Part shown: positions 12,935-46,592 of the stretch, in pieces
How positions within the stretch are numbered: position 1 is the stretch's first letter
How the letters are laid out: the number at the start of each line of letters is the position of its first letter
NCBI GenBank assembly: GCA_016187485.1
Contig: JACPJO010000005.1
Span: forward strand, 155,519 to 219,518
Reading direction: 5' to 3'
DNA length: 64,000 bases
Source: Candidatus Uhrbacteria bacterium
Lineage (GTDB): Bacteria > Patescibacteriota > Patescibacteriia > UBA9934 > UBA10169
Translations under genes and position numbers: made by a program
The notes under the pieces: model-generated
The model's database searches: none
Seen by the model: the letters and a program-made list of their open reading frames with translations, nothing else
Told to the model about the DNA's origin: nothing

Positions 12935-12977
12935 AACTACCAAAAATCAGGAGCTTAGCTCCTGATTTTTGGTAGTT
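12935..12977. repeat. 39-43-bp perfect palindrome ACTACCAAAAATCAGGAGCTtAGCTCCTGATTTTTGGTAGT
   Basis: Read directly. The core AGGAGCT(A/T)AGCTCCT recurs at 41883-41897. Confidence 0.8.
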
Positions 12978-15471: not shown

Positions 15472-15486
15472 AACTATTCTCTTATT

Positions 15487-15506
15487 CCTGCCTGCCGGCA
15501 GGCAGG
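15487..15506 (-). terminator. 20-bp perfect GC-rich palindrome CCTGCCTGCCGGCAGGCAGG downstream of the last paralog
   Basis: Read directly, 9 bp downstream of the stop at 15515. A/T-rich flank. Confidence 0.5.
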
Positions 15507-15514
15507 CTCACGAA

Positions 15515-17254
15515 TTAGCCGCGCGAGGTTCCTGATTCAATAAACTTATAGTAACACTCTTTGCAGTATACCGCCCGTTTTGGATACACCTTATTCTTCC
15601 CAACGGAAATGCTCTTTTGGCACTCCGCGCACAATGCCGGCTCCACGATCGCCATGTTGAGCTCGGCGTAGAGGTCCATGAGACGCCGCGTGGCATGCGA
15701 CCTGGGCGGCGCAATCTTGAGCGCGCGGTAAATCGCAAGCTCGGGCACGAGGTATGAAAACCGCCGGTCGGAGACATCATCGCGATACACCGTCTTCGTC
15801 ATGGCGTCGTCTGCGCGATCAGGAATCTCGCTCGTTGCATGGATCATGCTCGCATCCATAGCGGCACCCTCCGCTCCCTCGCTTGTCACATCAACATCAG
15901 GCATACCGAGTTTGATCAGCTCCTCCTTCGGCGTGTCATAGATGTAGCGTGCGCCGCATCCGCTCCAGTGCTGGGTCGAAAACTTCGCCGATGGTAAGTC
16001 ACCATACTCTCCCCTCTCAAGCATCGCGCACTTGAGTGCATCCACGGTCTTCCAATATTCCTCCTCCGTGTATTGCTTGTTCAAGATGCAAAACTTTTTG
16101 TGCTTGAGCCCAATGCATCCGAAACAGTTTTCGCAATCCATGCACGCATGACAATATTCGCACTCAAGACAGCGCGTGAGAAGCGAGAGCGAGTAGCGAG
16201 TCTTCGAGCTGTACCCATTCCCGATACCATAGTAGCAATCCGACGCACCATTTACCGCCGCACACATGTAGCAATCGCTCGACGGCACACCATAGGCGAT
16301 ATTGACCCATCCAAGATCGGCACACCCTTTGCAGACATAAAATGCATCGCGGATGCGCGTTGAATCGTAAATGTATTCCCCCGTCACGTCTTCTGCATGC
16401 ACGTTCCAGTTTTCCGGCCAGGCGGCGTGCGCAATAAGATCTTTGAAGCGCTGCTCGTATTCCGCGCGTACCGCATACGAAGAAAGGTCAACCTCTGAAC
16501 GTCGTTTCTTCCACTCCGCTTCAGTAAGCTGTTCATTCCACCAAAGATATTTCGCATTGCGTTTATTCGTCGCACCGAAGCAAAACTCGCAGTTTCGACA
16601 ATCGAAGAGAAACGCACCTGAGAGACAATCGAGGCATTCGCGCAGATACAAACAGTCCGCGATGTTTTGAGAATGGACGACATTGTAGGAGCGCGAGATG
16701 TGGGTGGAGAGCGCGACCTCGGCAGAGTCTTCCATGTCCGATACGTTCATCGAAAAAACAGAATTCTTTGATTTGCACGCCAAGACGAAGTAGCTGTTCT
16801 GATCCCCACGCGAGATGAACGCGAGAGAATTTTCCGGCTGGACGTAATTAAAGTTCGCCGAACGTGGTACGGCAAGAGACAGCTTGTAGAGTTGATCGAC
16901 AAACGAGCGAGAGAGATCAAGCTCGCGTCCGTGCGACGTGAAGTCTTGCTTGAACCACTCGTCATCCGGGATCACACGGATGCCACTTGCGGGGTGAACG
17001 ACGGAGATAAGCGGTTTGCCGCCATTCGGTTGTGCGTTGTACCACATGTCAAACATGACGATGTGGGCATTCATGAGCTTCATCCGCGTCATGGGCGCAT
17101 ATTTCGACGGCGGGACGTTGTATTTGCGATACTGCGCAATCTCCGTGTCGTCCATCATCCACTTCGTCCCAAGCACAGCACACGTCCGCTCCCCGGGTTT
17201 GGTAGCATCGAGGATGGCTTTGACTTTTGCATCGTAGTTGGAGGTTTTGCTCAT
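15515..17254 (-). CDS. cysteine-rich paralog family protein P6 (about 27 Cys, no signal peptide, C-terminal CxxC...CxxC zinc-ribbon-like motif)
   Basis: N-terminus MSKTSNYDAKVKAILDATKPGERTCA, FLFDCRNCEFCFGATNKR, CENCFGCIGLKHKKFCILNKQY. Shares these blocks with five neighbours. Confidence 0.7.
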   Translation of the reverse strand: MSKTSNYDAKVKAILDATKPGERTCAVLGTKWMMDDTEIAQYRKYNVPPSKYAPMTRMKLMNAHIVMFDMWYNAQPNGGKPLISVVHPASGIRVIPDDEWFKQDFTSHGRELDLSRSFVDQLYKLSLAVPRSANFNYVQPENSLAFISRGDQNSYFVLACKSKNSVFSMNVSDMEDSAEVALSTHISRSYNVVHSQNIADCLYLRECLDCLSGAFLFDCRNCEFCFGATNKRNAKYLWWNEQLTEAEWKKRRSEVDLSSYAVRAEYEQRFKDLIAHAAWPENWNVHAEDVTGEYIYDSTRIRDAFYVCKGCADLGWVNIAYGVPSSDCYMCAAVNGASDCYYGIGNGYSSKTRYSLSLLTRCLECEYCHACMDCENCFGCIGLKHKKFCILNKQYTEEEYWKTVDALKCAMLERGEYGDLPSAKFSTQHWSGCGARYIYDTPKEELIKLGMPDVDVTSEGAEGAAMDASMIHATSEIPDRADDAMTKTVYRDDVSDRRFSYLVPELAIYRALKIAPPRSHATRRLMDLYAELNMAIVEPALCAECQKSISVGKNKVYPKRAVYCKECYYKFIESGTSRG

Positions 17255-17269
17255 ACAAACTATTCGCTT

Positions 17270-17281
17270 ATTCGCACGAAT
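17270..17281. promoter_or_regulatory. ATTCGCACGAAT (imperfect copy of the ATTCGCGCGAAT motif), 15 bp upstream of the P6 start
   Basis: Part of the conserved TATTCGCTTATTCGC(A/G)CGAATTAG block. Confidence 0.45.
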
Positions 17282-17290
17282 TAGCCGCGC

Positions 17291-19033
17291 TTACCCGTTC
17301 TTTTCAATAAACCCATGATAACAATTCATGCAGTATACTCTCCGCTCGGGAAACGTGAAATTTTTATACGTGGTCGTTTTGGCGCTGCAGGAGGCACAGA
17401 CAACTTCGATCGCAAAGGGGGAGTTCGCGTGGCGGAGCCAGTGTGTGAGGCGCGTAATAAAATGCCGCCGTGGGAATGGCCAGCGCTTTTCTTTGTAGAT
17501 CGCAAGCTCTTTTGGCACGATGCTGAAATCGCGATCGAGCTCCTCATCATGGATCGGCGTGTTCACATGCTCGGACGAGACCTCATCAATGCAATCCGGG
17601 ATATCCTCGATGCGAAGCCGTACCACATGCGCCTCCTCCCGTTTCGGCGCAAGCACCAATCCTTGCTTTGGATCCACACGAATCGCGCCGAACCTCTCGA
17701 GGTCTCGCTCGCGGTAATCAAAGTACACGGCACCCGTCGAGTGTTCAAAACCCGAGAGCGAAAACTTTCCGGGAAAAAACTCGCCATAACTTCCGTCATC
17801 GAGCATCGCGCACTTGAGCTCATCTACACGTCTCCAGTATTCCTCTTTTGGATACGGCTTGTTGAAGATGTGAAACTCCTTTTTGTGAAGTCCAGCACAC
17901 CCGAAGCAACGCTGGCAATCATCGCAGACGGCACAATACTCAAGTTCTACTCCATTGCTGCATCCCATCGTAAACTTGTTATCAGCGCCGTTCGTGTCCC
18001 CCGTGCTCATGTAGGTCCGTGTCGCCCAGCCAAATCCACTACAATACGCGCAATCGTTCGCCTCAATGCCGAATCGGCAGTGGTAACAGCCCGTGCACTT
18101 GTCGAGCCAATAACTATATCCATCGCAATTAACACAAAAGTTCAGGTGCTCACCGCGACTGTTTTCGTTTCGGATCCCGAAGGAGGCTGGCCAGATACTC
18201 TGTTCGTGCCAGAGTCTGTAGAACTTCTCGAGCCACGCATCTGCGGTCGATCGACAGCCGAGATCTACTTCCGCGCGCCGCTTTTTCCATTCTGATTCCG
18301 AGAGTTGTTCGTTGAACCACAGATATTTTTTCTGCCGTTTGTTCGTAGCCCCGAAGCACAGCTCGCAATCGCGGCAATCAAAAAGGAAGGAACTTTTGAG
18401 ACACCGATAACAGCTGAAGAGATATTCCGAATCGGCAATATTATGCGAATCGCTTATGGAAAACGAGCGGGCAATGTGTGTTCCATTGACCACGTCCACA
18501 CAGTCCTCCGCCTGAAATGCTGCGTAGGTGTAGAGAGAGCGAAGAGCCTGCGAGGCGCACGACATATAACTCTCCACGCTTTTCCACGAACCGACCGCGA
18601 CCGACGCAGCATCCACATCACGATTGCGTTTGGCACGCATGGGAACCATCGTCACGAGATCCCAGATTTGATCGAACACCGGACGGGAGGGATCAATGTC
18701 TTGATACGTGGAGGAAAAATCATGTTTGTACCAATCAATGTCCTCAACGACTTTGAACGGAAGATCGGGATGAATGGCAGAGACGATCGGCTTGCTCGAG
18801 AACACATCACGGTTCCAAAAAATGGCCAACCCGGTGTTGTAGCCATTCAGCATATTCATGCGCGTACCAGGTTTCACTTTCGACGGCGGGACACGAAACT
18901 TTTTACAGATAGCGATTTCGCTTTCATCCAACACCCACGTCTCGCCCGTCAATGCGCAAACCCGCTCCTCCCCTGCCTTCAAGCCGGCGAGGATTGCATC
19001 GAGCTTGGTGTCAAAGTTGGGTGTGTTGGACAT
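17291..19033 (-). CDS. cysteine-rich paralog family protein P5
   Basis: Start trimmed to MSNTPNFDTKLDAILAG by alignment to the paralogs. It abuts the P4 stop with a gap of about 1 bp. CDDCQRCFGCAGL motif. Confidence 0.65.
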   Translation of the reverse strand: MSNTPNFDTKLDAILAGLKAGEERVCALTGETWVLDESEIAICKKFRVPPSKVKPGTRMNMLNGYNTGLAIFWNRDVFSSKPIVSAIHPDLPFKVVEDIDWYKHDFSSTYQDIDPSRPVFDQIWDLVTMVPMRAKRNRDVDAASVAVGSWKSVESYMSCASQALRSLYTYAAFQAEDCVDVVNGTHIARSFSISDSHNIADSEYLFSCYRCLKSSFLFDCRDCELCFGATNKRQKKYLWFNEQLSESEWKKRRAEVDLGCRSTADAWLEKFYRLWHEQSIWPASFGIRNENSRGEHLNFCVNCDGYSYWLDKCTGCYHCRFGIEANDCAYCSGFGWATRTYMSTGDTNGADNKFTMGCSNGVELEYCAVCDDCQRCFGCAGLHKKEFHIFNKPYPKEEYWRRVDELKCAMLDDGSYGEFFPGKFSLSGFEHSTGAVYFDYRERDLERFGAIRVDPKQGLVLAPKREEAHVVRLRIEDIPDCIDEVSSEHVNTPIHDEELDRDFSIVPKELAIYKEKRWPFPRRHFITRLTHWLRHANSPFAIEVVCASCSAKTTTYKNFTFPERRVYCMNCYHGFIEKNG

Positions 19034-19034
19034 A

Positions 19035-20750
19035 TTATCCTCTCTCCCCAAGATACTCCCAATAGCACTTTTGACATAGAATGCGACGCATAGGAAATGT
19101 CGAGTTTCGGTACGTCGTAACTTCCGCGTGGCACTTCTCACACATCGCCTGCTCTTCACGCGGGCCGTTCGAGAACCGAAAACGGTTTTTCATGGAGAGG
19201 AATGGGTGCTCACTCGGCACGGCAACATTTTGCTTGCGGCAAAATGCCAGCTCGGCTTGTGTTACAACAAACGGACGGTGGAGAATGGGATCGAGAACAG
19301 ATTTGTTGATGAAGTTTTCCCATGCGGGATCATCGGCACGATCCGGAAGGTCGTCCGGTGAGAGAAGATCGGGCGTCGTCGATCCTATTGATGTTTCATA
19401 CATGGGGGCGCCGTGAGCACGAAGCTCGTCCGGTAAGTATTCCGCATACAAGTCACCCATCGAGAACTGGAAACCTGGCTCGGAAAATGCAGCAGGGAAA
19501 AATTCGCCGTACTCTCCACGATCAAGCATTGCACATTTCAGTTCATCGAGCTTCTGCCAATAATTCGCCTCGTCATATTGCTGATTCAGAATGCAAAACT
19601 TCTTGTGCCGTAAACCAACGCAGCCGAAACAATGCTCGCAATCATAACAGTTGAGAGAGTACTCCATGCCGATCGAACGCCACGTGCGGAAACAGAAACG
19701 GTTTTGGCTTCCCGAGAGCATGTCGCAACACTCATACATCTGTCCGCCCTTGCCACCCCAACCGGTAAACGCCGACTCTTGAAGTTCGAGCGTCGCATAG
19801 CAACGAAAGCAATCCGTTGAGTCGTAGTTGCGATAAGCAAACTTACAACGTGTTGAGTCGGAAATATGCTCCCCCGTGCACCCCTCCGAGCCAACATGGA
19901 CATACGCCGGCCAGACCGACTGACGGATCATCTCGAGAAACTGTTCATGCTGTTTTTGATACACGGCGCGCGATGAGAGATCAACTTCTTGTCGCCGCTT
20001 TTCCCATTCCTCTTTGGAAAGTTGCTCGTTCCACCACAAATACTTTTTATGCAACTGATTGCTCGCACCAAAACAGAATTCGCAATCAACGCAATCATAG
20101 AGGAATGCACTTGATGAACAGCCGTTGCAAGAAAAACAATCAACACAGCTAAAGCACTTGCTCGAATAGCTCGTCTGAAAACAAAATCGGCATCGACTGT
20201 TGTCGATCACGTCCATGCAATCTTCGTTCTCAAGACCGAGGAACGCATGAAGCACACGCCGGTTATACATAAGCGCGAAGGCCAAGTAGGCATCCTCACA
20301 CTTGATAAGGTCGACGCCGGTACAGCGAAGGTTCGAACCATCATCGCGGAGCGCCCCGACAGGAATACGGTGAGCCAGAGGAAGAAGCTGGTCGAAAAAT
20401 GATCGTTGAGAATCAAGTAACTGCCCCGGTTCTAGAAACTCTTTCGAGAACCATTCTTTATCGTGAATGATGTTAAACGGCGAGTCAGGGTGCACAAAAC
20501 TCCAGATTGACTCTCCCGTCTCGGCATGTGGTTTTTTCCAAAGCGCTAATCCCGACACAAACCCCATTAAGTGCCGCATTCTCGTATACGGCGCCCGCTT
20601 ACTCGGCGGGACGTTGAATTTTCTGTACCAGCCAATCTCTTCATCCGTCATGTTCCACTTTTCTCCCGTCAACGCACAAACTCTCTCGCCCGGCTGCGTG
20701 ACGTCGAGAATGGATTTTACTCTCAGGTCAAAATATTGAGTCTTGGACAT
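19035..20750 (-). CDS. cysteine-rich paralog family protein P4
   Basis: MSKTQYFDLRVKSILDVTQPGERVCALTGEKWNMTDEEIGWYRKFNVPPS, CEHCFGCVGLRHKKFCILNQQY. Confidence 0.7.
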   Translation of the reverse strand: MSKTQYFDLRVKSILDVTQPGERVCALTGEKWNMTDEEIGWYRKFNVPPSKRAPYTRMRHLMGFVSGLALWKKPHAETGESIWSFVHPDSPFNIIHDKEWFSKEFLEPGQLLDSQRSFFDQLLPLAHRIPVGALRDDGSNLRCTGVDLIKCEDAYLAFALMYNRRVLHAFLGLENEDCMDVIDNSRCRFCFQTSYSSKCFSCVDCFSCNGCSSSAFLYDCVDCEFCFGASNQLHKKYLWWNEQLSKEEWEKRRQEVDLSSRAVYQKQHEQFLEMIRQSVWPAYVHVGSEGCTGEHISDSTRCKFAYRNYDSTDCFRCYATLELQESAFTGWGGKGGQMYECCDMLSGSQNRFCFRTWRSIGMEYSLNCYDCEHCFGCVGLRHKKFCILNQQYDEANYWQKLDELKCAMLDRGEYGEFFPAAFSEPGFQFSMGDLYAEYLPDELRAHGAPMYETSIGSTTPDLLSPDDLPDRADDPAWENFINKSVLDPILHRPFVVTQAELAFCRKQNVAVPSEHPFLSMKNRFRFSNGPREEQAMCEKCHAEVTTYRNSTFPMRRILCQKCYWEYLGERG

Positions 20751-20761
20751 ACTATTCGCTT

Positions 20762-20773
20762 ATTCGCGCGAAT
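20762..20773. promoter_or_regulatory. ATTCGCGCGAAT perfect 12-bp palindrome, 11 bp upstream of the P4 start
   Basis: Read directly. Confidence 0.5.
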
Positions 20774-20785
20774 TAGAGATCATTG

Positions 20786-22516
20786 CTAGCCACGTTCTTC
20801 CATGTACCGAAGATAGCATGGTCTGCATAACACGCGCCGACGGCTGGAAAAAAGTGCGTTTCGGCTTGTCGTAACTGAGGTGCAGCAGATAGCGCATGTC
20901 GTTTCTTCAGGGATAGGCACATTCGAGTGGCGTACAAGGTGGAGAAGGCGAGTGAGAAAGTGCTTGTCGGGAATTGGTAATCGGTGTTTTTGATAAAAGG
21001 CAAGTTCCGCTGGTGTGATCGTGTATAAACGATTAAGTGACTCATCCAGAATTGGTTTCCCAACATGTTGGGAAACATCAATATCCAGAAGTCGGTCAGG
21101 TAGTTCAGATGCTTTGAGCAGCCCTTCGGACTCATTGATATTCCCTTTCGTAGGATCGAACGTCGGCGCGCCGAATTTCTTGAGTTCATCGTCACTATAC
21201 CCAAAGTAAAACTCCCCCATCGAAAACTGAAATCCTGTCTGCGAAAGACTCGCAGGAAAAAACATGCCGTACTCGCCACGGTCGAGCATCGCACACTTGA
21301 TCTCGTCCACCCGCTGCCAATATTCCTCTTCGCCGTACGGCTTGTTGAAAATGTGAAACTTCTTTTTTTTGAGACCGACGCAGCCAAAACAGTGCTCGCA
21401 GTCGTAGCAGTCCATGCAATATTCTAAGTCTTGGCACCGCCATGAGCGTGAGCAGAATTTGAGGTTGTGATAATACGCGATATCCGCCGAGCAGTACGCC
21501 GCGTCTCCCCACCCCAACCACACGACACTCATGCTGTCACGATCATCCAGACTCATCCAGCATTGAAAGAGGTCCGTGCTCCCTTCGACCCAGTAACTCT
21601 CGCGACATCTTGTGGCGCGCACCAAATACTCTCCCGTGCTCTCCACGTCTGTCGCAAAGTTGAAATGGTCGCGGAAATACCCTTCCCCACGAATCATCTC
21701 AAGGTATCTTTCCGAGCACTCGTTCCATGTACGCCGTGATCGGAGGTCGACCATCTCAAGACGTTTACGATACTCTCCCTCCGACAGCTGTTCGTTCCAG
21801 AATATAAATTGTTTATCCTTCTTATTCGTTGCACCGAAGCAGTCTTGGCAGCGGCTACAATCAAAGAGAAACGCGCTGTTGATACAATCACCGCATTGGA
21901 AACAATAGGTACAGTGATGCATGTTCTCGGCCGCGTTGATGTGATAGCTCTCATTTACCCGAAGGGTGTTCGTGATACAGGCCGAATCACTTCCATGAAA
22001 ACTCACCGACGCATACAAAACACGTTGTAAATCCGCTCCGCCAAACAAAAGATAGGTGTCTTGGCATTTGATCATGTCCACGCCAACGCTGTTGGTACTT
22101 GACCCCTCATCGCGCAGAGCACCCACAGGAATCGAATATGCAAGTTGTTGAAACTGAGCAAAGAATGGTTCTCCAGGATCGAGCTCTCTTGTTGTTTGTG
22201 CGAATTCACGGTTATGCCAGTCGCGGTCGGGAATCACTTGATATGGACTGTCTGGGTGCACAAACGTAAGAAGCGGCTCCTTAGTCTCCGCATGCGGCTT
22301 TTTCCAAATGGCTATCCCAACAGGAAAGCCCAGGAGCTGTTTCAATCGCGGAATCGGCGCGCAGGAATGCGGCGGCACGTTGAACTTTTTGTACCATCCA
22401 ATCTCCTCCTCGGTCATGTTCCACTTCTCCCCCGTCAACGCACAAACCCTCTCGCCAGGTTTTATCGCGTCGAGGATGGATTTTACTTTGGCATCGTAGT
22501 TAGGTGTCCGATTCAT
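20786..22516 (-). CDS. cysteine-rich paralog family protein P3
   Basis: MNRTPNYDAKVKSILDAIKPGERVCALTGEKWNMTEEEIGWYKKFNVPP, CEHCFGCVGLKKKKFHIFNKPY. Confidence 0.7.
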   Translation of the reverse strand: MNRTPNYDAKVKSILDAIKPGERVCALTGEKWNMTEEEIGWYKKFNVPPHSCAPIPRLKQLLGFPVGIAIWKKPHAETKEPLLTFVHPDSPYQVIPDRDWHNREFAQTTRELDPGEPFFAQFQQLAYSIPVGALRDEGSSTNSVGVDMIKCQDTYLLFGGADLQRVLYASVSFHGSDSACITNTLRVNESYHINAAENMHHCTYCFQCGDCINSAFLFDCSRCQDCFGATNKKDKQFIFWNEQLSEGEYRKRLEMVDLRSRRTWNECSERYLEMIRGEGYFRDHFNFATDVESTGEYLVRATRCRESYWVEGSTDLFQCWMSLDDRDSMSVVWLGWGDAAYCSADIAYYHNLKFCSRSWRCQDLEYCMDCYDCEHCFGCVGLKKKKFHIFNKPYGEEEYWQRVDEIKCAMLDRGEYGMFFPASLSQTGFQFSMGEFYFGYSDDELKKFGAPTFDPTKGNINESEGLLKASELPDRLLDIDVSQHVGKPILDESLNRLYTITPAELAFYQKHRLPIPDKHFLTRLLHLVRHSNVPIPEETTCAICCTSVTTSRNALFSSRRRVLCRPCYLRYMEERG

Positions 22517-22524
22517 ATTCGCCT

Positions 22525-22536
22525 ATTCGCGCGAAT
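22525..22536. promoter_or_regulatory. ATTCGCGCGAAT palindrome, 8 bp upstream of the P3 start
   Basis: Read directly. Confidence 0.5.
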
Positions 22537-22796
22537 TAGAGAAGAGAAATAATCTGCTTTGCGCCGGACGGCTGGTCTTTGGAAAGACGATAGAACATCT
22601 CCAGGCTCCGCTGATCACGATCAACGATATCAGCTGCAAAAAGAATCCCCAAATGCTTCGAGGTTGCTTTAAGTGATAGCTTGATCTTATTGGCAATCTC
22701 CCACACCGGTGCTTCCTCTTTTTCTCTTAGGAACTCAACGATCGCAAGCCGCCTGCGGTTCGCCAACGCCTTCAATGTACGCTCTAATTGCCTCAT
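22536..22796 (-). CDS. small ArsR/SmtB-type winged-helix transcriptional regulator (second regulator of the array)
   Basis: 86 aa. NRRRLAIVEFLRE...VWEIANKIKLSLKATSKHLGILFAADIV has the HTH_20-like layout. Preceded by an extended palindrome centred on ATTCGCGCGAAT. Confidence 0.55.
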   Translation of the reverse strand: MRQLERTLKALANRRRLAIVEFLREKEEAPVWEIANKIKLSLKATSKHLGILFAADIVDRDQRSLEMFYRLSKDQPSGAKQIISLL

Positions 22797-22802
22797 ACAA
22801 AA

Positions 22803-22834
22803 CTATTCTATCATTCGCGCGAATTAGAGAATAG
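22803..22834. promoter_or_regulatory. extended palindrome CTATTCTATCATTCGCGCGAATTAGAGAATAG upstream of the small ArsR-like gene
   Basis: Core ATTCGCGCGAAT at 22813-22824 with imperfect outer arms. Confidence 0.5.
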
Positions 22835-22849
22835 ATTTATCCACTATGT

Positions 22850-23485
22850 TTAAGTCGATAGACGTAGGAATGAATTATGTGTCTTTATGACTTCCACGTG
22901 TCCGTCTTGCACAAGAACCGCCTCATCATCCGTTAAGCGGGTGCTCATGACTCCATGCTGTCGCTCATATTCAGCGATCTGTTCTTCTTCAGCCGGTTCA
23001 TAGTGCGGAGTAATGGTGAGATCGACAAGCCCCATACCGCGCATATCCTTGAGATCAACAATGTTTTTATCTCCCCCGACACCAAGTCCTGAATGTCCAA
23101 TATCCTTCCCCGCCACTATCGAGCCGGCGCTTACTCCGATGTAGATCCCCCCTTTTTCTAAAAATGACTTTACTGCTACATCGAAGCCGCTCTCGCGAAT
23201 ATATTTCATGAGGTAATAGGTGTTGCCGCCTTGGACATAGATAATGCGACTGCGCTCAAGTGCTCTTACGGTTTCATCCTGCGTCTTACCAGCCAGATCA
23301 TACTCCTCAACAATCCAACCCATCTGCTCCATTACGACACGGTCTCCGTCCACATAGTGCCAATCCGATTCCGGAACGGACGCCGTGATGATATGCAACA
23401 CATGGGGCGCTCCCTCAAGAGGAGCGACAAACGATTCGATCTCGTGTTTCATTCTCATCCCCGCTGATGTAAGAAAAAGTTTCAT
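22850..23485 (-). CDS. S51-family peptidase (peptidase E / alpha-aspartyl dipeptidase-like)
   Basis: MKLFLTSAG N-terminus, YVQGGNTYYL and YIGVSAGSIVAG (Ser nucleophile in GxSAG) as in PepE/cyanophycinase. Confidence 0.7.
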   Translation of the reverse strand: MKLFLTSAGMRMKHEIESFVAPLEGAPHVLHIITASVPESDWHYVDGDRVVMEQMGWIVEEYDLAGKTQDETVRALERSRIIYVQGGNTYYLMKYIRESGFDVAVKSFLEKGGIYIGVSAGSIVAGKDIGHSGLGVGGDKNIVDLKDMRGMGLVDLTITPHYEPAEEEQIAEYERQHGVMSTRLTDDEAVLVQDGHVEVIKTHNSFLRLST

Positions 23486-23493
23486 GTTCGCCT

Positions 23494-23505
23494 ATTCGCG
23501 CGAAT
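23494..23505. promoter_or_regulatory. ATTCGCGCGAAT palindrome, 8 bp upstream of the S51 peptidase start
   Basis: Read directly. Confidence 0.5.
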
Positions 23506-23517
23506 TAGAGATTGCCC

Positions 23518-25251
23518 CTAGCCGTTCTTCTCGAGATACTCCAAATAACACTTCTTGCAATACACCTTCCGATCTGGATACTTTGCATTGAATGAGATCG
23601 TAACCTCGGCGGAACATGCCACGCAAACGCGCTTCTCGAACCCGCATCCTTGCATCGTACGGAAAAGCTCGATCACGCGCGAGATGAAGTGCTCCTTCGG
23701 TGGAGCAAGACGGAGTTTTCGATAGAGTTCAAGTTCGGCGGGAAGAAAAGCAAACTTTCTGTTTGCCTTCGTATCGAAAATAGGGGTTCTTGTCCATTCG
23801 TCCGTTACCTCGTCGAGTTTGTCGGGGATCTCATCCGGAGATTTCATCGCCGCCCCGGCAGTCTCCACGCCGCACGCACCGTCACTGCATTGTTCGAGCA
23901 TGTTGGCTCCAAGTTTTTTCATCTCCTCAAGACTTGCACCGCAATACAGCATCGAGCCCCCATGCGGCGCGTACGTCGTTGCCATCGACAAGAGGAAGAA
24001 CCTCCCATACTCACCGCGCTCGAGCATCGCACACTTGAGCTCGTCCACACGTCTCCAATACTCCCCAGGAGAGTACGGCTTGTTGAAGATGTGAAACTCT
24101 TTGTGCTGAAGCCCCACGCACCCGAAACAGTTTTTGCAGTTGTAACAGGTGATGCAGTACTCGCAAGTATCCGACCCGATCGTGCGCCAGCACCCGACAA
24201 GCCGCGTGGAATTCGCCGCCGTCATGGACATATAACACTCGGTTGCATTGAATGGACCAAAGCAATCGAAGCACCCATGCGTGTTATGCCCGTATGCGCA
24301 ACGATAATTGTCCGTCGAGTGTTCCGTGAGCGTAAAGCACTCTCGGCAGTTCGTGCAGTCGGTGAGATACTCTCCTGTTGAATCGATCGCTTTCTCATTG
24401 AAGTTCTCCGGCCAGATGGTTTCCGTCTGAAGAAGGTTCTCGAACTTCGCAAATTGCTCCTCCAGGACTCGGCGCGAAGAGAGATCCACGGAGACCCGAC
24501 GTTTCTCCCACTCTTCTTTCGAGAGTTGCTCGTTCCACCAGAGATACTTTCGCCGACGCTTGTTCGTAGCGCCAAAACAATATTCACAATCGCGGCAGTC
24601 AAAGAGAAACGCAGAGTCCACGCAATCGAATGACTCACGCGCCACAAGGCAACGGTACATTCGATCGCAATGAAGCATGTTCCAGCACTGATTGGACTTG
24701 TTCACGGTGATCATGTCGGCACATTCTTCCCCATCAATTAGAAGCACGCTGTAGTAGGCATTCTTTGCTTTGCAGGCCAGCGTGAAATAACAATTCTGGT
24801 CGCCCATGGAGACGAGCGAGATGGAGTTCACCGCCGGAACAATCGTCGAGGTCGCGATCATGGGAATCTTTTTCTGAAGCTCCCGCAGTTGCGGGAAGAG
24901 AGACTGCGCAGGATCGACCTCCAAAGAAATATCCGAGAAGTCCTTGTTGAACCACTCCGCATCTGGCAACACACGAACGCCGGAGGTGGGATGATGAAAC
25001 GACAACACAGGCACACCCGTCTCAAAATGTTTGTTCCACCAAAATTGGTACCCCGTCGTGTAATGCGCCATCAAAACCCATCGCGTGCGTTGTGAATAAC
25101 TCGACGGGGGTACATTCAAACGTCGGCACCAATCGATCTCCTCTTGCGTAAGCACCCACTTGTCGCCGAGCAACGAACAAACCCTCTCGCCGGGTTGGGT
25201 AGCATCAAGGATGACTTTGATTTTCGCGTCGTAACTTGGAGTCCGGGACAT
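23518..25251 (-). CDS. cysteine-rich paralog family protein P2
   Basis: MSRTPSYDAKIKVILDATQPGERVCSLLGDKW, FLFDCRDCEYCFGATNKR, CKNCFGCVGLQHKEFHIFNKPY. Confidence 0.7.
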   Translation of the reverse strand: MSRTPSYDAKIKVILDATQPGERVCSLLGDKWVLTQEEIDWCRRLNVPPSSYSQRTRWVLMAHYTTGYQFWWNKHFETGVPVLSFHHPTSGVRVLPDAEWFNKDFSDISLEVDPAQSLFPQLRELQKKIPMIATSTIVPAVNSISLVSMGDQNCYFTLACKAKNAYYSVLLIDGEECADMITVNKSNQCWNMLHCDRMYRCLVARESFDCVDSAFLFDCRDCEYCFGATNKRRRKYLWWNEQLSKEEWEKRRVSVDLSSRRVLEEQFAKFENLLQTETIWPENFNEKAIDSTGEYLTDCTNCRECFTLTEHSTDNYRCAYGHNTHGCFDCFGPFNATECYMSMTAANSTRLVGCWRTIGSDTCEYCITCYNCKNCFGCVGLQHKEFHIFNKPYSPGEYWRRVDELKCAMLERGEYGRFFLLSMATTYAPHGGSMLYCGASLEEMKKLGANMLEQCSDGACGVETAGAAMKSPDEIPDKLDEVTDEWTRTPIFDTKANRKFAFLPAELELYRKLRLAPPKEHFISRVIELFRTMQGCGFEKRVCVACSAEVTISFNAKYPDRKVYCKKCYLEYLEKNG

Positions 25252-25263
25252 AAACTATTCTCT

Positions 25264-25277
25264 AATTCGTACGAATT
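25264..25277. promoter_or_regulatory. AATTCGTACGAATT perfect 14-bp palindrome (variant of the motif), 12 bp upstream of the P2 start
   Basis: Read directly; overlaps the P1 stop codon. Confidence 0.45.
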
Positions 25278-27018
25278 AGCCGACCTGTTCGAGATACGCA
25301 AGGTAGCACGCCGTGCAGTAAATCTTCCGTTTTGGAAACGCGATGTTTTTGTGTATCACCACTTCCTTTGAGCACTTTTGACATAGGCCCTGCTCGGCCA
25401 TAAAAGTATTCCCTAGTCGAGCGAGCGCACGGATGCGTGTCATGAAATGTCGCCGAGGAAATGGAAGTCTCATGTGCGTATAAAACGCCACATCTTCTTT
25501 TCGTACGGTAAAGGGACGTTCAAGCTCTGGATCCATAATAGGCCTTCCAGCAAACAACGCGCAGGCCTCCAGTCCATCCGGCAACAACTCCGGATCCATA
25601 GACTCACCATACACGGCCGATTGCGAGAGAGAGATGACCGCCCCGCGCTTCGCATCAAAAACAATTCCACCGAGACGAACAACCTCCTCGTCGGTAAGCG
25701 GTGCATGAAGCTCCCCACCCCACTGGATGCCCGACGGAGAAAAGTCTCCAGGGAAAAAGTTCCCGTACTCGTCCCGATCAAGCATCGCGCATTTCAATTC
25801 GTCGAGCTTGTTCCAATATTCTTCCTCAGCATAGGCCTTGTTGAGAATATGAAACTTCTTGTTCTTGAGTCCAACACATCCGAAGCAGTTTTCACAATCG
25901 GAACAATTGAGACAGTACTCGATGTTTTGACAGCGCATGCACGCCGTCGAGAACAAGACGCGACTCCCGTTGATAACACCAACCGCCATGTAGCTGTCCG
26001 ATGTCCCGTCAATTCCGCTCGTGTACGCATTCCCCTGGACGACGGAATGACAAAGCTGGCAGGCGTACATATCCGTCGCAAACGAAAGTCCGAAACCGTC
26101 GGTGCAACGCACGCACTTCATGAGATACTCTCCACTCGACGCCTCACAGCCGACATTGAAGTTTTCTGGCCATACCGCTTCCGTTCGCAACATCTCGAGA
26201 TAGCGTTGCATCCATGACTGAAAAACTTTCCAGGACGTGAGATCCACTTCTTTCATTTTTTGCTCATACGTCTCTTTCGAAAGTTGTTCATTTGCGAAGA
26301 CGTACTTCCGATTGCGCAAATTGCTCCCGAGAAAGCAGGACTCGCAATTGCGGGAATCAAAGAGGAAATCGCAAGACACGCATTCCTGACATTGCATCGC
26401 CACCCGACAGCGATACATTTTTGTAGAGCGGTTGAGCGAAAAGCTTTCTTGTGACGATGTCCCGATAAAGGTGTCCTCGCAATCTTCCAGCTCTTTGCAC
26501 ATGAACCCGTACGCGGAACGTCTGGTGTTTTTCACGCCGCCAAAAACCATAAACGAATCTTCAGCAGAAATAATCCCGACACCCATACTGTTCACAGGGG
26601 TACCAAAGGTGCGTGTCGCTTGAAATGGCACGGCGTGTAATACCTGGCGAAGTTGTGGAAAAAATGGTTGCGCGATATCAAGACCCCTCGCTCCGCGATC
26701 GCTCCAATCCTGTGCGTGCCACAGAGAGTCCTCAACGACCGGAATGGGATTGTCCGGATGGATATAGGAGACGATGAGTTTCTTGGTCACGGCATCGGTA
26801 TTCCACCAGATGGTAACACCGGAGTTGAAACCGAACAGGAGTTTCCGCCGAATCGTCGGCGAAATATCAGAAGGTGGGACCTGGAACTTACGCATCCAGA
26901 TAAGCTCTTCTTCCGTCATCATCCATCTCTCACCTGAAACCGGGCACACTCGCTCGCCGGGTTGTGCGGCGTCAAGGATCGCTTTGATCTGTACATCGTA
27001 GTTGGGGGTATGAGACAT
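25276..27018 (-). CDS. cysteine-rich paralog family protein P1
   Basis: Start trimmed to MSHTPNYDVQIKAILDAAQPGERVCP. CENCFGCVGLKNKKFHILNKAY. C-terminal CQKCSKEV...YCTACY. Confidence 0.7.
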   Translation of the reverse strand: MSHTPNYDVQIKAILDAAQPGERVCPVSGERWMMTEEELIWMRKFQVPPSDISPTIRRKLLFGFNSGVTIWWNTDAVTKKLIVSYIHPDNPIPVVEDSLWHAQDWSDRGARGLDIAQPFFPQLRQVLHAVPFQATRTFGTPVNSMGVGIISAEDSFMVFGGVKNTRRSAYGFMCKELEDCEDTFIGTSSQESFSLNRSTKMYRCRVAMQCQECVSCDFLFDSRNCESCFLGSNLRNRKYVFANEQLSKETYEQKMKEVDLTSWKVFQSWMQRYLEMLRTEAVWPENFNVGCEASSGEYLMKCVRCTDGFGLSFATDMYACQLCHSVVQGNAYTSGIDGTSDSYMAVGVINGSRVLFSTACMRCQNIEYCLNCSDCENCFGCVGLKNKKFHILNKAYAEEEYWNKLDELKCAMLDRDEYGNFFPGDFSPSGIQWGGELHAPLTDEEVVRLGGIVFDAKRGAVISLSQSAVYGESMDPELLPDGLEACALFAGRPIMDPELERPFTVRKEDVAFYTHMRLPFPRRHFMTRIRALARLGNTFMAEQGLCQKCSKEVVIHKNIAFPKRKIYCTACYLAYLEQVG

Positions 27019-27079
27019 AACGCCCACAGTCTATCTCATTTCCCCCAAAAACTAAAAACCCTGCGCCCCGCCGATCTCC

Positions 27080-27101
27080 CAACCTTTCAATTGAAGGGTT
27101 G
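27080..27101. promoter_or_regulatory. operator-like 22-bp inverted repeat CAACCTTTCAATTGAAGGGTTG (one mismatch), about 60 bp upstream of P1
   Basis: Read directly; near-identical to 27342-27363. Overlaps the 3' end of the ArsR-like gene. Confidence 0.55.
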
Positions 27102-27332
27102 TTTGATAAACCGACGCGCTGGCGAGGAGAGAACCACTTCACCAGCTCGGTTTTGTTCAATCAGGCCCACCCGAGCCAGTCGTTTCAAGTGCGAAGATGT
27201 TGCTTGCTCTGAAATGTCGAGTTCGTGGGCAAGATCACAAACAGCAGCCTTGCCGTGTTCGTGAAGGTACATGAAGACAGTGAGACGTCGTTCATTGCCC
27301 AAAGCTCGGAAAAAATCTGCCAGAATTTTCAT
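27087..27332 (-). CDS. ArsR/SmtB-family transcriptional repressor
   Basis: Trimmed to MKILADFFRALGNERRLTVFMYLHEHGKAAVCDLAHELDISEQATSSHLKRLARVGLI, the canonical ArsR HTH with a VCDL motif. Confidence 0.7.
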   Translation of the reverse strand: MKILADFFRALGNERRLTVFMYLHEHGKAAVCDLAHELDISEQATSSHLKRLARVGLIEQNRAGEVVLSSPARRFIKQPFN

Positions 27333-27341
27333 AGATGCCCC

Positions 27342-27363
27342 CAACCTTTCAATTGAAAGGTTG
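27342..27363. promoter_or_regulatory. perfect 22-bp palindrome CAACCTTTCAATTGAAAGGTTG, 10 bp upstream of the ArsR start (autoregulatory operator candidate)
   Basis: Read directly; reverse complement identical. Confidence 0.6.
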
Positions 27364-27393
27364 CCTTTGAGATCAGCACACAAAGAAAATACC

Positions 27394-28839
27394 CTACACA
27401 ATAATCTCTCCCATATCAATCGGCTTGGCTTCGGGTTCTTTTGCGACCGAGTCGCCGCCCTCCAATTCTTTTTCTACTTGCACGCGAGGCGTTGCGTACT
27501 TCTCGCGCGACTGTTTAACAATACGCTCGACAAAATTTCCATGCTTGGGCTTGTCCACGGTAAGCACATCGGCAGAAAACGGATCCCATCGGCGCCCGTC
27601 AATCGTCATTTTCACATAAATCTCCCGCTCAGAAAGATTAATCATGTCGTTCACCGAGAAAACTGGCTGCATTTCGTTGGACATAATCTCCGCATCCTCC
27701 GCGCTGATCTGAAATGACACGATAGAGGCGACGTTGCCAAACAAAGATGACCGCAGCGATGGCGAAAGTTGGGAGAGGTTTTGGTTGGCCACCGTCAAAC
27801 AAAAGCCGAATTTGCGCGCTTCGGCCAAAATATTTTCAAATGTCCTTGTGGCGATATTTTGAAACTCGTCTACATAGAGGTAGAACGGGGTACGATCTTT
27901 CTCCGGCAGACGGATGCGCTGCATGGACGCTTGATAGAGTTTTGTCACAAGTACCGCGCCAAAGAAAGCAGATTTCTCGTCTCCCACACGACCTTTCGAC
28001 AGATTCACGAGCAGAATCTTTTTGTTCTGCATGATCTCATACAAGTCGATCTTGCTTTTTTTCTGTCCAAAAATATTGCGGAGCAGCGGATCAGTAAGCA
28101 ACTGGCCGAATTTATTGAGAAGAGGCGACACCGCTTCCGCATCATACCGCTGCGACCACTCCGGAAACTCAATCGCCCAAAACCGTCGCACCACCGAATC
28201 TTTGATATGCTCAATTACCTTACCGCGAAATGGACCCGAGGAAAGCATGGAGACAATGCCGTTCAACGTTCCGTCGGGATAATCAATCATGGCCAGACAC
28301 GAAAAGCGCAGTAAGTGTTCAATGCGTGGAGACCAGTCGGAGGCAAATTGCTTTTTGAAAATCTCGATAATCGAGTCCGTCACCATATGCTTATCCTCGT
28401 CGGCAACGTTGGCAATCGGGTTAAACGCTACGGGAAAATCACGGTCGGCTGGGTCAATCAGCACCACATCATCAATACGATTCTCCGGAATGAACTCCAA
28501 CATGGAGTTGATCAAATCTCCATGCGGATCCACAACACCCACCGCGTGGCCAAAATGAATATCCGCTCGCATGAGAAGTTCCATGAGTTTTGTTTTCCCC
28601 ACGCCAGACTTCCCAATCACATACAAATGGCGACGACGATCGCGGCGCTTAATACCAAAAATGTACCGCTTCGCTGCATAGCCGGTGGAAAAGTTTGTTT
28701 TACCAAAAAGAGAAATCTCTTCCGGTGCGACGTCTTGCGGGGTCGGGAGAGTATCGGGTGGTTCATGACGCCGAGCAACAAACGTCTCCAGTTCTCCGTC
28801 GCCCGCCGTTGTCGGTGATTGAAAAAGTGGATCGGCCAT
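27394..28839 (-). CDS. FtsK/HerA-superfamily P-loop ATPase, TraD/VirD4- or DUF87-like (paralog 1)
   Basis: Walker A GKSGVGKT, DPHGD motif, Walker B FYLYVDEFQN followed by AEARKFG. 481 aa. Confidence 0.65.
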   Translation of the reverse strand: MADPLFQSPTTAGDGELETFVARRHEPPDTLPTPQDVAPEEISLFGKTNFSTGYAAKRYIFGIKRRDRRRHLYVIGKSGVGKTKLMELLMRADIHFGHAVGVVDPHGDLINSMLEFIPENRIDDVVLIDPADRDFPVAFNPIANVADEDKHMVTDSIIEIFKKQFASDWSPRIEHLLRFSCLAMIDYPDGTLNGIVSMLSSGPFRGKVIEHIKDSVVRRFWAIEFPEWSQRYDAEAVSPLLNKFGQLLTDPLLRNIFGQKKSKIDLYEIMQNKKILLVNLSKGRVGDEKSAFFGAVLVTKLYQASMQRIRLPEKDRTPFYLYVDEFQNIATRTFENILAEARKFGFCLTVANQNLSQLSPSLRSSLFGNVASIVSFQISAEDAEIMSNEMQPVFSVNDMINLSEREIYVKMTIDGRRWDPFSADVLTVDKPKHGNFVERIVKQSREKYATPRVQVEKELEGGDSVAKEPEAKPIDMGEIIV

Positions 28840-28842
28840 ACA

Positions 28843-30699
28843 TCACCACGGAAAAATACTCGGCTCTTTTGCCACTTGCAGGGGCTCCTCCTCTTCCCCA
28901 TCATCCCCACCGTCATCTTTCTGTGGAGCACTCCCCGCGGACGGTGGGGAATTTCCATGAGGCTTCTTGTGACGGCGGCGTTTACGCTTTCCTCCTTCAT
29001 CCGGACGAGAACCCACAGAGACGGTCGGTGCATTCGTCGGCGTCACAGGAGAAGTTGCCACAGAAACAGAGGCTGCAGGTGTCGGGGTCGTTATCCCTGT
29101 TGGACGAGGAGCGCTTAGCGCCGACAACGACACCTCTCCCACCGTCTCCGTCCTCACCACTTCAGCGTCTTTCATAACAGAGACCGGCGTTTCTCCAGGT
29201 CTGGACGGTTTTTTACCGGCTTTGCGTTCTGCCTTCACAATATCAATGCAATCTTCACAGTAAATCGGCCGCGAGCGATCCAGTTCAACCGGTAACTCCA
29301 TGTGTTTTTGGCATCGCGAACACGTATACTCATGCATCCACGACTTCTTCTTCGACACAGGCGGCGCAACTTCTGGAATTTCTGGAAGCGCCCCCTCTTC
29401 GATCACGGGTTTACTTTCACTCCACCGCAGAATCCGCTCTTCCACAAGTTCGCGCGGGACGGCATATTGCTGTCGGGAAGCCGCAATAACCTTCACCTCA
29501 TTCTTTGTGTGAATCTGGATTGGCGGAAGCGTTACGGCAGAGAACGGATCACCGGCAATTCCTTTCGAGAGAAGTTTCAAATAAATGTTTGCCTTGGGGA
29601 GATTTACAAGGTCGTCCTCGATAAATTTTGGCGCAAACTCCACGGCTAATTTTTCTGCATCGGCCGATCCTACACGGAACGAAATAAGCGTTCCGGCGTT
29701 TCCAAACACGGCCGCTTCGACCGTTTCATCCAGCTGCTCAATGTATTGGTGAGCCATGATAAGCGCGAGGCGGTATTTACGCGCTTCGGAGAGAATGTTC
29801 GCAAACGACTCCGTGGCAAAGTTTTGAAATTCGTCAATGTAGAGGTAGAAGTCCTCACGAGCTTCCTCCAAAATATCCACGCGCGCCATTGCGGCAAGCT
29901 GCATCTTTGTCACAAGAAGCCCCCCAAGCAGCCGGCTTGCGTCCTCCCCAATACGTCCCTTCGACAGGTTCACAATAAAGATGTGGTTTCCATCCATGAT
30001 GTGGCGCATGTCAATCGTGGACTTCTCTTGTGCCACGATGTTGCGCACAAGCGAGGTAGAAAGAAACTGGCCGACCTTGTTTTGAATCGGCGCAATTGCT
30101 TCCGTGCGAAACTTTGGATCCCACTGCTCAAATTCTGTCACCCAGAAAGCCTTCACCACCGGATCTCGAATGCCCGCCACAATTTTCCGGCGGAAGTCGC
30201 GGTCTACAAGAATACGGTTGATGCCAAGAAGGGTATTCCCGGGATTTTCCAGCAAACTCAAAATACAGTTATTCATGATGTGCTCCATGCGTGGACTCCA
30301 CACATCCGGCCAAATCTTTTTAAAGACGCCCATGAGACCCGAGGCAATCACGTGCTTGTGGCTATCGTCCACGGCTTCGAGTACGTTGAACCCAATGCAA
30401 TGATTGAGATCGGATGGATTGAAATACACGACGTCATTGATCCGATGCTCGGGAATGGCATCAATGATCTTCTCGGCAGAATCCCCGTGCGGATCAATAA
30501 ATCCGACGCCGTGGCCGTAGTAGATGTCGGCCAAGATCATGTTTTCAATCAGCGTCGTTTTTCCCACACCGGATTTTCCCACAATGTACATGTGCCGGCG
30601 GCGATCATCCGTGCGAATGCCAAACTTCCGCAAACGGTTGCGGAAGTTTGTTCGCGCGAAGAAAATTACATCTTGTTCGTGATCGTGAAAGTATTTCAT
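28843..30699 (-). CDS. FtsK/HerA-superfamily P-loop ATPase (paralog 2) with a C-terminal CxxC...CxxC zinc ribbon and a Pro/Thr/Lys-rich tail
   Basis: GKSGVGKTT, DPHGDS, FYLYIDEFQN, SEARKYRL; CSRCQKH...CEDC. The start may be 30726 (26-bp overlap) or the internal ATG at 30699. Confidence 0.65.
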   Translation of the reverse strand: MKYFHDHEQDVIFFARTNFRNRLRKFGIRTDDRRRHMYIVGKSGVGKTTLIENMILADIYYGHGVGFIDPHGDSAEKIIDAIPEHRINDVVYFNPSDLNHCIGFNVLEAVDDSHKHVIASGLMGVFKKIWPDVWSPRMEHIMNNCILSLLENPGNTLLGINRILVDRDFRRKIVAGIRDPVVKAFWVTEFEQWDPKFRTEAIAPIQNKVGQFLSTSLVRNIVAQEKSTIDMRHIMDGNHIFIVNLSKGRIGEDASRLLGGLLVTKMQLAAMARVDILEEAREDFYLYIDEFQNFATESFANILSEARKYRLALIMAHQYIEQLDETVEAAVFGNAGTLISFRVGSADAEKLAVEFAPKFIEDDLVNLPKANIYLKLLSKGIAGDPFSAVTLPPIQIHTKNEVKVIAASRQQYAVPRELVEERILRWSESKPVIEEGALPEIPEVAPPVSKKKSWMHEYTCSRCQKHMELPVELDRSRPIYCEDCIDIVKAERKAGKKPSRPGETPVSVMKDAEVVRTETVGEVSLSALSAPRPTGITTPTPAASVSVATSPVTPTNAPTVSVGSRPDEGGKRKRRRHKKPHGNSPPSAGSAPQKDDGGDDGEEEEPLQVAKEPSIFPW

Positions 30700-30700
30700 A

Positions 30701-44157: not shown

Positions 44158-44161
44158 AAAT

Positions 44162-44187
44162 TCTCTCTAAGAGATCTCTTAGAGAGA
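44162..44187. repeat. REP-like perfect palindrome TCTCTAAGAGATCTCTTAGAGA (family A)
   Basis: Read directly. A related half-site CCTCACTTAGAGAGAA lies at about 44249-44266. Confidence 0.75.
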
Positions 44188-46566: not shown

Positions 46567-46592
46567 TCTCTCTAAGTCATCACTAAGAGAGA
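46567..46592. repeat. REP-like element CTCTCTAAGTCATCACTAAGAGAGAA (family A), 5 bp upstream of the RAYT start
   Basis: Read directly. Confidence 0.7.

Follow-up and report, generated by a model that had tools for sequence, protein, structure and literature searches.

The locus considered here raises the question of whether two families of short palindromes, set between the genes of a long array, are the operators of two small ArsR/SmtB-family regulators encoded in the same array. It lies in a stretch of 64,000 nucleotides, hereafter the window, from a Candidatus Uhrbacteria genome (contig JACPJO010000005.1). To our knowledge, almost nothing is known of gene regulation in the Candidate Phyla Radiation (CPR, or Patescibacteria), bacteria that are not growable alone and have few transcription factors. 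By sequence comparison, both palindromes are genuine features far above chance, and each accompanies its regulator from genome to genome. We consider it likely that the window holds two separate ArsR/SmtB-type autoregulatory modules, in each of which the regulator gene is placed between two copies of its own palindromic candidate operator. In module A, a regulator of 81 amino acids (aa), ArsR81, would act on a 22-bp palindrome. In module B, an 86-aa regulator, sArsR, would act on a composite site (site B) copied to seven gene junctions. In both modules the downstream copy of the palindrome overlaps the stop codon of the regulator and faces the next gene.

Within the window, copies of site B are found at the junctions of six Cys-rich paralogs (P1 to P6), a peptidase S51 gene (S51), sArsR, and uppP. 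The sequence-only reading of this DNA had described a 12-bp palindrome with two variants, embedded in a conserved leader 8-16 nt before six start codons, and this description was confirmed. The core ATTCGCGCGAAT occurs exactly at 20762, 22525, 22813, and 23494 (four copies vs 0.04 expected), with the variants ATTCGCACGAAT at 17270 and ATTCGTACGAAT at 25265, and the core ends 8-16 nt 5' of the ATGs of P3, S51, P4, P2, P6, and sArsR. The 24-nt extended pattern CTAATTCGYRCGAATNNNNGAAYA has six matches (0.00 expected), always on the minus strand, which is the coding strand. Read in that sense, the leaders are ..CTAATTCGCGCGAATA(A/G)GCGAATAG.., with the ATG following within 0-8 nt. The 32-bp imperfect palindrome reported before the small ArsR-like gene is also real. 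The count of six needed correction, since a seventh copy, split by a perfect 20-bp GC palindrome, CCTGCCTGCCGGCAGGCAGG (15487-15506), precedes uppP. The regulator and the site B copies are as follows.

22536-22796, minus strand: sArsR, 86-aa ArsR/SmtB-family regulator (Pfam HTH_5 and HTH_20, NF033788)
25256-25279, minus strand: site B before P2, CTAATTCGTACGAATTAGAGAATA, with a GTAC centre that preserves the palindrome
23485-23508, minus strand: site B before the S51 peptidase gene; the final A of the site is the A of the ATG
22803-22834, minus strand: site B before sArsR, the full form with four half-sites, CTATTCTCTAATTCGCGCGAATGATAGAATAG, a 32-bp imperfect palindrome and proposed autoregulatory site
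22516-22539, minus strand: site B before P3; the TAA at 22536-22538 is the sArsR stop codon and the final A is the A of the P3 ATG
20753-20776, minus strand: site B before P4 (24-nt pattern match)
17261-17284, minus strand: site B before P6, coding-strand core ATTCGTGCGAAT (24-nt pattern match)
15474-15518, minus strand: seventh site B, split, cTAATTCGTGAG[CCTGCCTGCCGGCAGGCAGG]AATAAGAGAATAG, 2 nt before the uppP GTG start

The seven copies of the window are located at the P2, S51, sArsR, P3, P4(+P5), P6, and uppP junctions; P5, whose ATG is only 1 nt past the P4 stop, accordingly has no copy. Three features go beyond the sequence-only reading: the seventh copy, the 22-bp palindrome that covers the TGA of ArsR81 (described below), and the use of site B as coding sequence. 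The TAA in cTAAttcg of site B is the stop codon of P1, sArsR, and P6, and the C-terminus of sArsR, IISLL*, is encoded by the left half of the following site B. The usual C-terminus of sArsR homologues, (I/V)(I/L)SLL*, is the translation of the left outer half-site TATTCTCTAA. This makes a compact case of coding and regulatory overlap, with the C-terminus and stop codon of a regulator encoded by the next candidate operator. Two other origins of the repeated site were considered. Carry-over from gene duplication was rejected, as the site is near-identical despite 35-46% paralog identity and also occurs before the unrelated S51, sArsR, and uppP genes and in other CPR groups. An integron attC-like cassette site was dropped, there being neither an R/L-box pattern nor an integrase.

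The distribution of site B outside the window was then assessed. A metagenome scan with the 24-nt pattern yielded at least 120 stretches of DNA, whose flanks and base composition are unrelated. The consensus from 214 distinct instances is (a)TTCTCTAATTCG-CG-CGAATAgGcGAATAG, of ~30 bp, with the 12-bp palindrome as its core. Its GAAT half-sites number two on the inside and one or two on the outside (TATTC-N4-ATTCG-CG-CGAAT-N4-GAATA), and many instances form perfect palindromes of 30-32 bp, matching on both strands alike. Among the metagenome stretches listed, the genes directly 3' of the site were most often sArsR (11), followed by the paralogs (10); the remainder are diverse and include Mur ligases in four loci, ClpP, GluRS, L21, and others. 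Among the 25 sArsR homologues in the fetched loci selected by the motif, 23 carry site B at most 110 nt upstream, and at least 16 carry a second copy at or just past the stop codon.

A motif-free test was provided by four loci fetched by the sArsR protein alone, from Doudnabacteria, Liptonbacteria, Paceibacterota, and one metagenome contig. Site B stands directly before and after sArsR in all four (4/4), and sometimes one gene further downstream. These loci contain 10 site B hits against 0.66 expected, with 2-3 copies per locus, all of them at most ~650 nt from the regulator, and the rest of each ~20-kb locus has none. Among the 120 matches listed, sArsR homologues are ~86 aa long and 58-77% identical, and they come from Uhrbacteria, Doudnabacteria, Liptonbacteria, Sungiibacteriota, and Paceibacterota. 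Their recognition helix, LS(F/L)KATSKHL (LSLKATSKHL in the window protein), is nearly invariant, like site B. The earlier suggestion that the 86-aa ArsR-like protein is a second regulator thus finds comparative support as a putative assignment: the protein co-occurs with the ATTCGCGCGAAT site in several CPR groups, including all four regulator-anchored loci. In the same genome but outside the window, locus L191 has three more site B copies, two before paralogs, one of them the unsplit form CTAATTCGTGAGAATAAGAGAATAG, and one at the stop of a NUDIX gene. An AT-rich palindrome, TTAATTACATATTTAATTA(C/T)GTAATT, was seen just 3' of site B in L075, L122, L125, and L188, which suggests tandem sites for a second factor.

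Module A is smaller, and its elements in the window are listed here.

27087-27332, minus strand: ArsR81, 81-aa ArsR/SmtB-family winged helix (Pfam HTH_5, NCBIfam NF033788, alignment)
27342-27363, strand not assigned: perfect 22-bp palindrome CAACCTTTCAATTGAAAGGTTG, proposed operator A1, 9 nt before the ArsR81 ATG (27332)
27080-27101, strand not assigned: second copy of the 22-bp palindrome, with one mismatch, overlapping the ArsR81 TGA (27087-27089) and 61 nt 5' of the P1 ATG (27018)

The sequence-only reading had placed the perfect palindrome and its one-mismatch copy near the starts of the ArsR gene and of P1; coordinates and sequences were reproduced, with gaps of 9 nt and 61 nt. No such pair (exact plus one-mismatch) arose in 100 shuffles of the window (0/100). 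A homologue search with ArsR81 found four proteins, plus one in UBA10169, and module A rests on five loci. The layout of palindrome, gene, and palindrome, with the stop codon within the second copy, was found in all five (window, L058, L198, L199, and L200), and the position of the proposed operator A1 is occupied in each of the four relatives. The 22-mer reads TAACCTTTCAATTGAAAGGTTA in L198 and L200. In L199 both copies carry AACCTTTTAATTAAAAGGTT and read AACCTTTTA(A/G)TTAAAAGGTT, and in L058 the sequence is AAAC(G/A)TT-TAAT(G/T)(A/G)-AATGTTT, with AAACATT-TAATTG-AATGTTT among its forms; in each of these two loci the change is symmetric. Both arms and both copies of the 22-mer change together, which is the pattern expected of a dimeric protein co-evolving with its site. 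The flanking in five of five loci and the symmetric co-changes in L199 and L058 lend comparative support to the 22-mer as putative operator of the 81-aa ArsR. The next gene in L199 and L200 has a TATAAT or TATACT box, and the second 22-mer is centred ~32 nt 5' of the start predicted from it. The most likely targets of module A are P1 and arsR81 itself.

The gene following the ArsR81 homologue encodes a glutaredoxin in L198, L199, and L200. The window protein has a single Cys, in helix alpha3 (AAVCDL), and by alignment the ArsR81 clade keeps one alpha3 Cys, at either of the Cys positions of the ArsR CVC motif. The conserved Cys together with the downstream glutaredoxin in relatives suggests that ArsR81 may be switched by a thiol or redox signal, a reasonable guess and no more. 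A strong promoter, TTGACA-17-TGGAAT, is also conserved upstream of ArsR81 homologues (L198:5865-5960, L199:1375-1490, L058:8912-9080). A stretch of 50-150 nt comes after it, which in L198 and L199 leads to a hairpin that resembles a terminator and is trailed by a T-run. This arrangement could be a small RNA or an attenuator. An Rfam search that covered L198-L200 gave chance-level matches only and none for the promoter-hairpin region.

We next consider how the two regulators would act. From what is known of the ArsR/SmtB family, ArsR81 and sArsR would bind their palindromes as dimers, with probably two dimers on the composite site B, and binding would probably repress transcription by promoter occupancy, giving negative autoregulation. 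Where an AT-rich relative has a -10 box that can be recognised, the site is centred about 30 to 48 nt 5' of the inferred start, over the -35 region and spacer, and many of the mRNAs concerned seem to have no leader (TATAAT, 6 nt, ATG). The window sites run up to the start codons, ending 0-8 nt from the ATG, and no separate promoter or Shine-Dalgarno sequence was seen between them; therefore the promoter must overlap the site or lie upstream. A road-block mode would also be possible in the window. The earlier description of the targets as six transcription units is tentative, as a consensus scan found no recognisable promoter or terminator separating the genes. A weak AGG/AAG in the right spacer of site B, 5-12 nt before the ATG, may serve as ribosome-binding site.

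The same geometry bears on an alternative that we regard as unlikely, namely that the ArsR proteins bind these sites as activators, anti-silencers, or promoter-defining factors, the right arm AGGCGAATAG supplying part of the promoter for (near-)leaderless mRNAs. Relative to the inferred start, six loci have the site centre at ~-39.5 to -42.5 and three have it at -30.5, one helical turn apart; the site is followed by extended -10 promoters, many of the mRNAs downstream seem to be without a leader, and the window ATGs come 0-8 nt after the right arm. Moreover, HlyU, among the closest solved relatives, was deposited as a transcriptional activator. Set against this, neither GAATAG nor AATAGT is a good -10 match, most of the ArsR/SmtB proteins characterised act as repressors, and the usual layout of negative autoregulation is that of a regulator gene with its own site in front. 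As a general rule, the right arm as a -10 box for leaderless mRNAs was rejected, its distance to the ATG in the window varying from 0 to 5 nt.

The absence of a separate Shine-Dalgarno sequence, with an element always on the coding strand and directly before start codons, speaks for a different possibility: that the 12-bp palindrome acts in each mRNA, where together with its flank it would be a structured leader, or a site for an RNA-binding protein, and control translation or stability, the ArsR-like gene being merely one carrier. The split copies, in which a strong GC hairpin (L021:12647-12715, z = -3.15) rises from the retained halves, likewise resemble a stem with a variable apical part. 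A structured 5' leader had been the alternative of the sequence-only reading. When folded, however, the six window leaders were no more stable than shuffles (z -0.5 to -1.4) and gave inconsistent minimum-energy folds, the best fold not being the palindrome hairpin in four of six, and an Rfam search of 15000-29000 returned no hit at E <= 5. In addition, many copies are perfect palindromes on both strands, the element stands 5' of the -10 boxes in AT-rich relatives and hence outside the transcript, and the tight coupling to a DNA-binding winged-helix gene is the behaviour of an operator. An RNA role is very improbable on this evidence. RNA folding of both 22-mer contexts also showed no significant stability.

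The genome is rich in intergenic palindromes, and this raises the further possibility that both motifs are dispersed elements, similar to repetitive extragenic palindromes (REP) or miniature inverted-repeat transposable elements (MITE), or protein-independent hairpins in spacers (terminators or mRNA stabilisers), with the ArsR genes as bystanders. A third palindrome family, CTCT(T/A)AGTGATCACT(A/T)AGAG, has at least six copies in the window against 0 expected, two of which flank a transposase gene.

44161-44188, 46446-46465, 46570-46589, 47222-47252, 52677-52696, and 52765-52784, strand not assigned: copies of the third palindrome family (window scan)
46597-47250, plus strand: Y1_Tnp (IS200-like) gene, 217 aa (30.6 bits vs cutoff 23), between two palindromes of the third family; the only Y1_Tnp gene in the window

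This pair of palindrome and gene looks like a system of REP and REP-associated tyrosine transposase (RAYT) in a CPR genome. The two modules resemble REP/RAYT systems in that a cognate palindrome stands on either side of a gene, with further copies in intergenic spacers. They differ in that the genes flanked by the 22-mer or site B are DNA-binding regulators, not transposases, and the RAYT-like system of the window (46570-47252) has a different palindrome. For the dispersed-element explanation count the third family (CTCTTAGTGATCACTAAGAG) beside its Y1/IS200-like transposase gene, the unrelated genome-specific palindromes at the same junctions of other Uhrbacteria arrays, and the occurrence of some copies of both motifs in convergent spacers, with the L051 22-mer inside a 32-bp perfect palindrome. 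Yet neither motif is linked to a transposase, the flanked genes being of ArsR type, and each of the regulator-anchored loci has its 2-3 copies of site B beside the regulator only, the rest of its ~20 kb being free of the site. The AT-rich stems are weak, those of the window lack the T-run that would follow a terminator, and the terminator scan was empty at the motif positions. A sequence that stays the same across several CPR groups is what a protein-binding site, and not a REP family, typically shows. The orientation of site B is mostly towards a co-directional downstream gene (63 vs 13 opposed vs 10 convergent), a crude count from a rough and noisy gene caller with many false 'inside ORF' (open reading frame) calls and for qualitative use only. 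Dispersed or protein-independent palindromes are, in our view, highly unlikely as the explanation of either motif.

The GC palindrome of the seventh site, CCTGCCTGCCGGCAGGCAGG, and its relatives were observed inserted exactly in the middle of site B, with the halves intact, in L136:1540-1610, L021:9938-9997, 11759-11818, and 12648-12707, L091, L122, and L168. The same GC hairpin has 21 copies in 1.6 Mb of CPR loci, some with a terminator-like T-run (L134, L144). A bolder proposal is that site B is a portable start-of-gene cassette, made of a stop codon, an operator, and a ribosome-binding/start context, which spreads between CPR gene junctions, is the preferred landing place of the GC hairpin CCTGCC...GGCAGG, and punctuates the Uhrbacteria paralog array so that one sensor-less regulator switches each copy. 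If true, this separate switching of each paralog would be a regulatory design not known from any bacterium; we hold it to be improbable. The regions 5' of 184 paralog copies have either a stop/start overlap or short spacers with palindromes that vary from genome to genome, and among them the window motif was found again only in UBA10169 and one other metagenome-assembled genome (MAG). Two further palindromic features of the window lie outside the array, namely a family ACGGGGTCTGACCCCGT with three copies (9420-9471, 9523-9556, and 10011-10052) and a perfect hairpin with 21-nt arms at 12935-12977, likely a bidirectional terminator.

Several observations weigh against two autoregulatory modules and are gathered here. 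The transcription starts used above were inferred from -10-like hexamers only. The scan of the window for sigma-70 consensus promoters and terminators returned fewer hits than shuffles and nothing at the junctions, and the window has no room for a promoter between site and ATG; the picture of an operator over a promoter is thus tentative at this locus. A site position of about -41.5 in six loci would fit an activator too. Several site B copies are split by 23-64-nt GC-rich insertions with both halves kept, which a simple model of a dimer on a palindrome does not explain. The second 22-mer copy belongs to the 3' end of arsR81 as much as to the region upstream of P1. In convergent spacers, where there is no gene to regulate, some copies of both palindromes occur (L191 4405 and 4463; L051 11828); these copies and the split sites suit none of the explanations considered here well. 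One is a relative of the 22-mer, AAACATTCAATTGAATGTTT, between the NUDIX and Ddl genes (L191:4463-4482); another, between a paralog and a TrmB-like gene (L051:11816-11851), is the exact window 20-mer as part of a perfect palindrome of 32 bp. Finally, the metagenome locus set of at least 120 stretches was chosen by the site B motif itself, and the genes after site B in metagenomes are very diverse and therefore point to no coherent regulon function. With these points weighed, two ArsR/SmtB-type autoregulatory modules remain the reading that we prefer.

The putative targets belong to an array in which all genes at 14.7-33 kb are on the minus strand. Besides the two regulators, the genes are, in transcription order:

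28843-30726, minus strand: coupling-protein-like (TraD/VirD4-type) ATPase 1, first in transcription order and paralogous to ATPase 2 (profile match)
27394-28839, minus strand: coupling-protein-like (TraD/VirD4-type) ATPase 2, after ATPase 1 and before ArsR81 (profile match)
25276-27018, minus strand: P1, first of six Cys-rich beta-solenoid paralogs; its TAA stop is inside the next site B copy
23518-25251, minus strand: P2 (paralog comparison)
22850-23485, minus strand: peptidase S51 gene, 211 aa (Pfam PF03575, 102.5 bits)
20786-22516, minus strand: P3, identical to NCBI HYW18_03650
19035-20750, minus strand: P4 (paralog comparison)
17291-19033, minus strand: P5, ATG 1 nt past the P4 stop, with no site B between P4 and P5
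15515-17254, minus strand: P6; its TAA stop (15515-15517) is within the left half of the split site B
14698-15471, minus strand: BacA/UppP (undecaprenyl-diphosphatase; Pfam PF02673, 216.5 bits), GTG start, downstream of the split site B

Megablast of the array against plasmids gave no match. P1 to P6 are 571-580 aa long with pairwise amino-acid identities of 35-46%, and a profile search returned no Pfam or NCBIfam match for them. The P3 protein is a 100% match to the hypothetical protein HYW18_03650 of a Candidatus Uhrbacteria MAG. The structure model of the paralog is confident (predicted local distance difference test score, pLDDT, 91.6), and its structural matches are generic beta-solenoids only. 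In a GTDB genome scan (398 confirmed stretches), the family was limited to Uhrbacteria and close relatives and hugely expanded there, with up to nine tandem copies per locus. The C-terminus of every paralog carries a CxxC-x(17-19)-CxxC motif, the same pattern as residues 464-494 of the 627-aa ATPase (28843-30726, minus strand), which weakly match the CxxC-x17-CxxC domain TIGR04272 (26.9 bits vs cutoff 36). Genome-specific palindromes or hairpins were seen within 70 nt 5' of the paralog copies in other Uhrbacteria (L002, L014, L015, L020, L022, L024, L018, L055, and L062), such as a 40-bp palindrome, CAACCGTGAATAGTGACCGGTCGGTCACTATTCACGGTTG, with compensatory variants in L024 and a double hairpin with GTAA/TTAC loops, present in both orientations, in L022.

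The value of the case would lie in the pairing of a regulator and a DNA site from sequence alone, which holds across several CPR groups with a nearly invariant site of ~30 bp. The candidate targets include a large uncharacterised Uhrbacteria-specific family, situated beside coupling-protein-like ATPases, as well as cell-wall genes (a Mur ligase in four loci, and uppP). The underlying biology would be that of an ordinary ArsR-type autoregulator, and we close by comparing the two modules with known systems.

By the curated family model, both proteins are members of ArsR/SmtB: sArsR scores 64.1 bits and ArsR81 65 bits with NF033788 (cutoff 55), and their HTH_5 scores are 26.7 and 35.4 bits. The nearest solved relatives of the two are NolR, HlyU, Lmo1102, and CzrA. 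Alignment revealed in neither protein a metal or metalloid sensory site (alpha3/alpha3N Cys motif or alpha5 His/Asp/Glu). sArsR lacks the known metal-sensor residues and has no alpha5 metal ligands, its one His is part of the recognition helix, and its C-terminal helix is short; Cys is absent from the window protein and from 101 of the 120 family members among the matches listed. The sensor-less proteins NolR and PagR belong to ArsR/SmtB, and a metal site does not define the family. As with SmtB, CzrA, CadC, NmtR, and E. coli ArsR, each regulator here is a small winged-helix protein whose gene is preceded by an AT-rich inverted repeat, a repeat next to the regulator's own gene being present in 5/5 ArsR81 loci and in 23/25 motif-selected and 4/4 regulator-anchored sArsR loci. 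The half-sites are of (T)GAA/TTC(A) type, as in ArsR/SmtB autorepressors, and the same site also precedes neighbour genes. Unlike those five proteins, sArsR is minimal (86 aa) and every known metal site is absent, and ArsR81 retains only one Cys of the ELCVCDL-type alpha3 site of ArsR. Known ArsR/SmtB autorepressors also differ in that the palindromes here overlap the regulator's own stop codon and that one array holds seven copies of site B, which has three or four half-sites.

The closest solved relative of sArsR is NolR of Sinorhizobium (PDB 4omy/4omz, E 3.5e-6), an ArsR-family protein that likewise has no metal sensor, binds several operators, and controls several genes. NolR is of low sequence similarity and from a different phylum, and its site is asymmetric, (A/T)TTAG-N9-A(T/A), unlike the GAAT-type palindrome of site B. 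With the thiol or redox sensors of the BigR/HlyU/SqrR type, ArsR81 shares the conserved alpha3 Cys, and glutaredoxin is the next gene in three relatives. Those sensors, in contrast, use a Cys pair where ArsR81 has a single conserved Cys at one of two adjacent positions, and sulfur-metabolism genes are absent near ArsR81. A literature search of limited reach brought up no paper on the site B motif, on ArsR-type regulation in Patescibacteria, or on the Uhrbacteria paralogs. Collectively, the alignments and site comparisons indicate that sArsR is a sensor-less minimal ArsR/SmtB form with a composite site and ArsR81 a single-Cys form, and that both are new to the ArsR/SmtB family.

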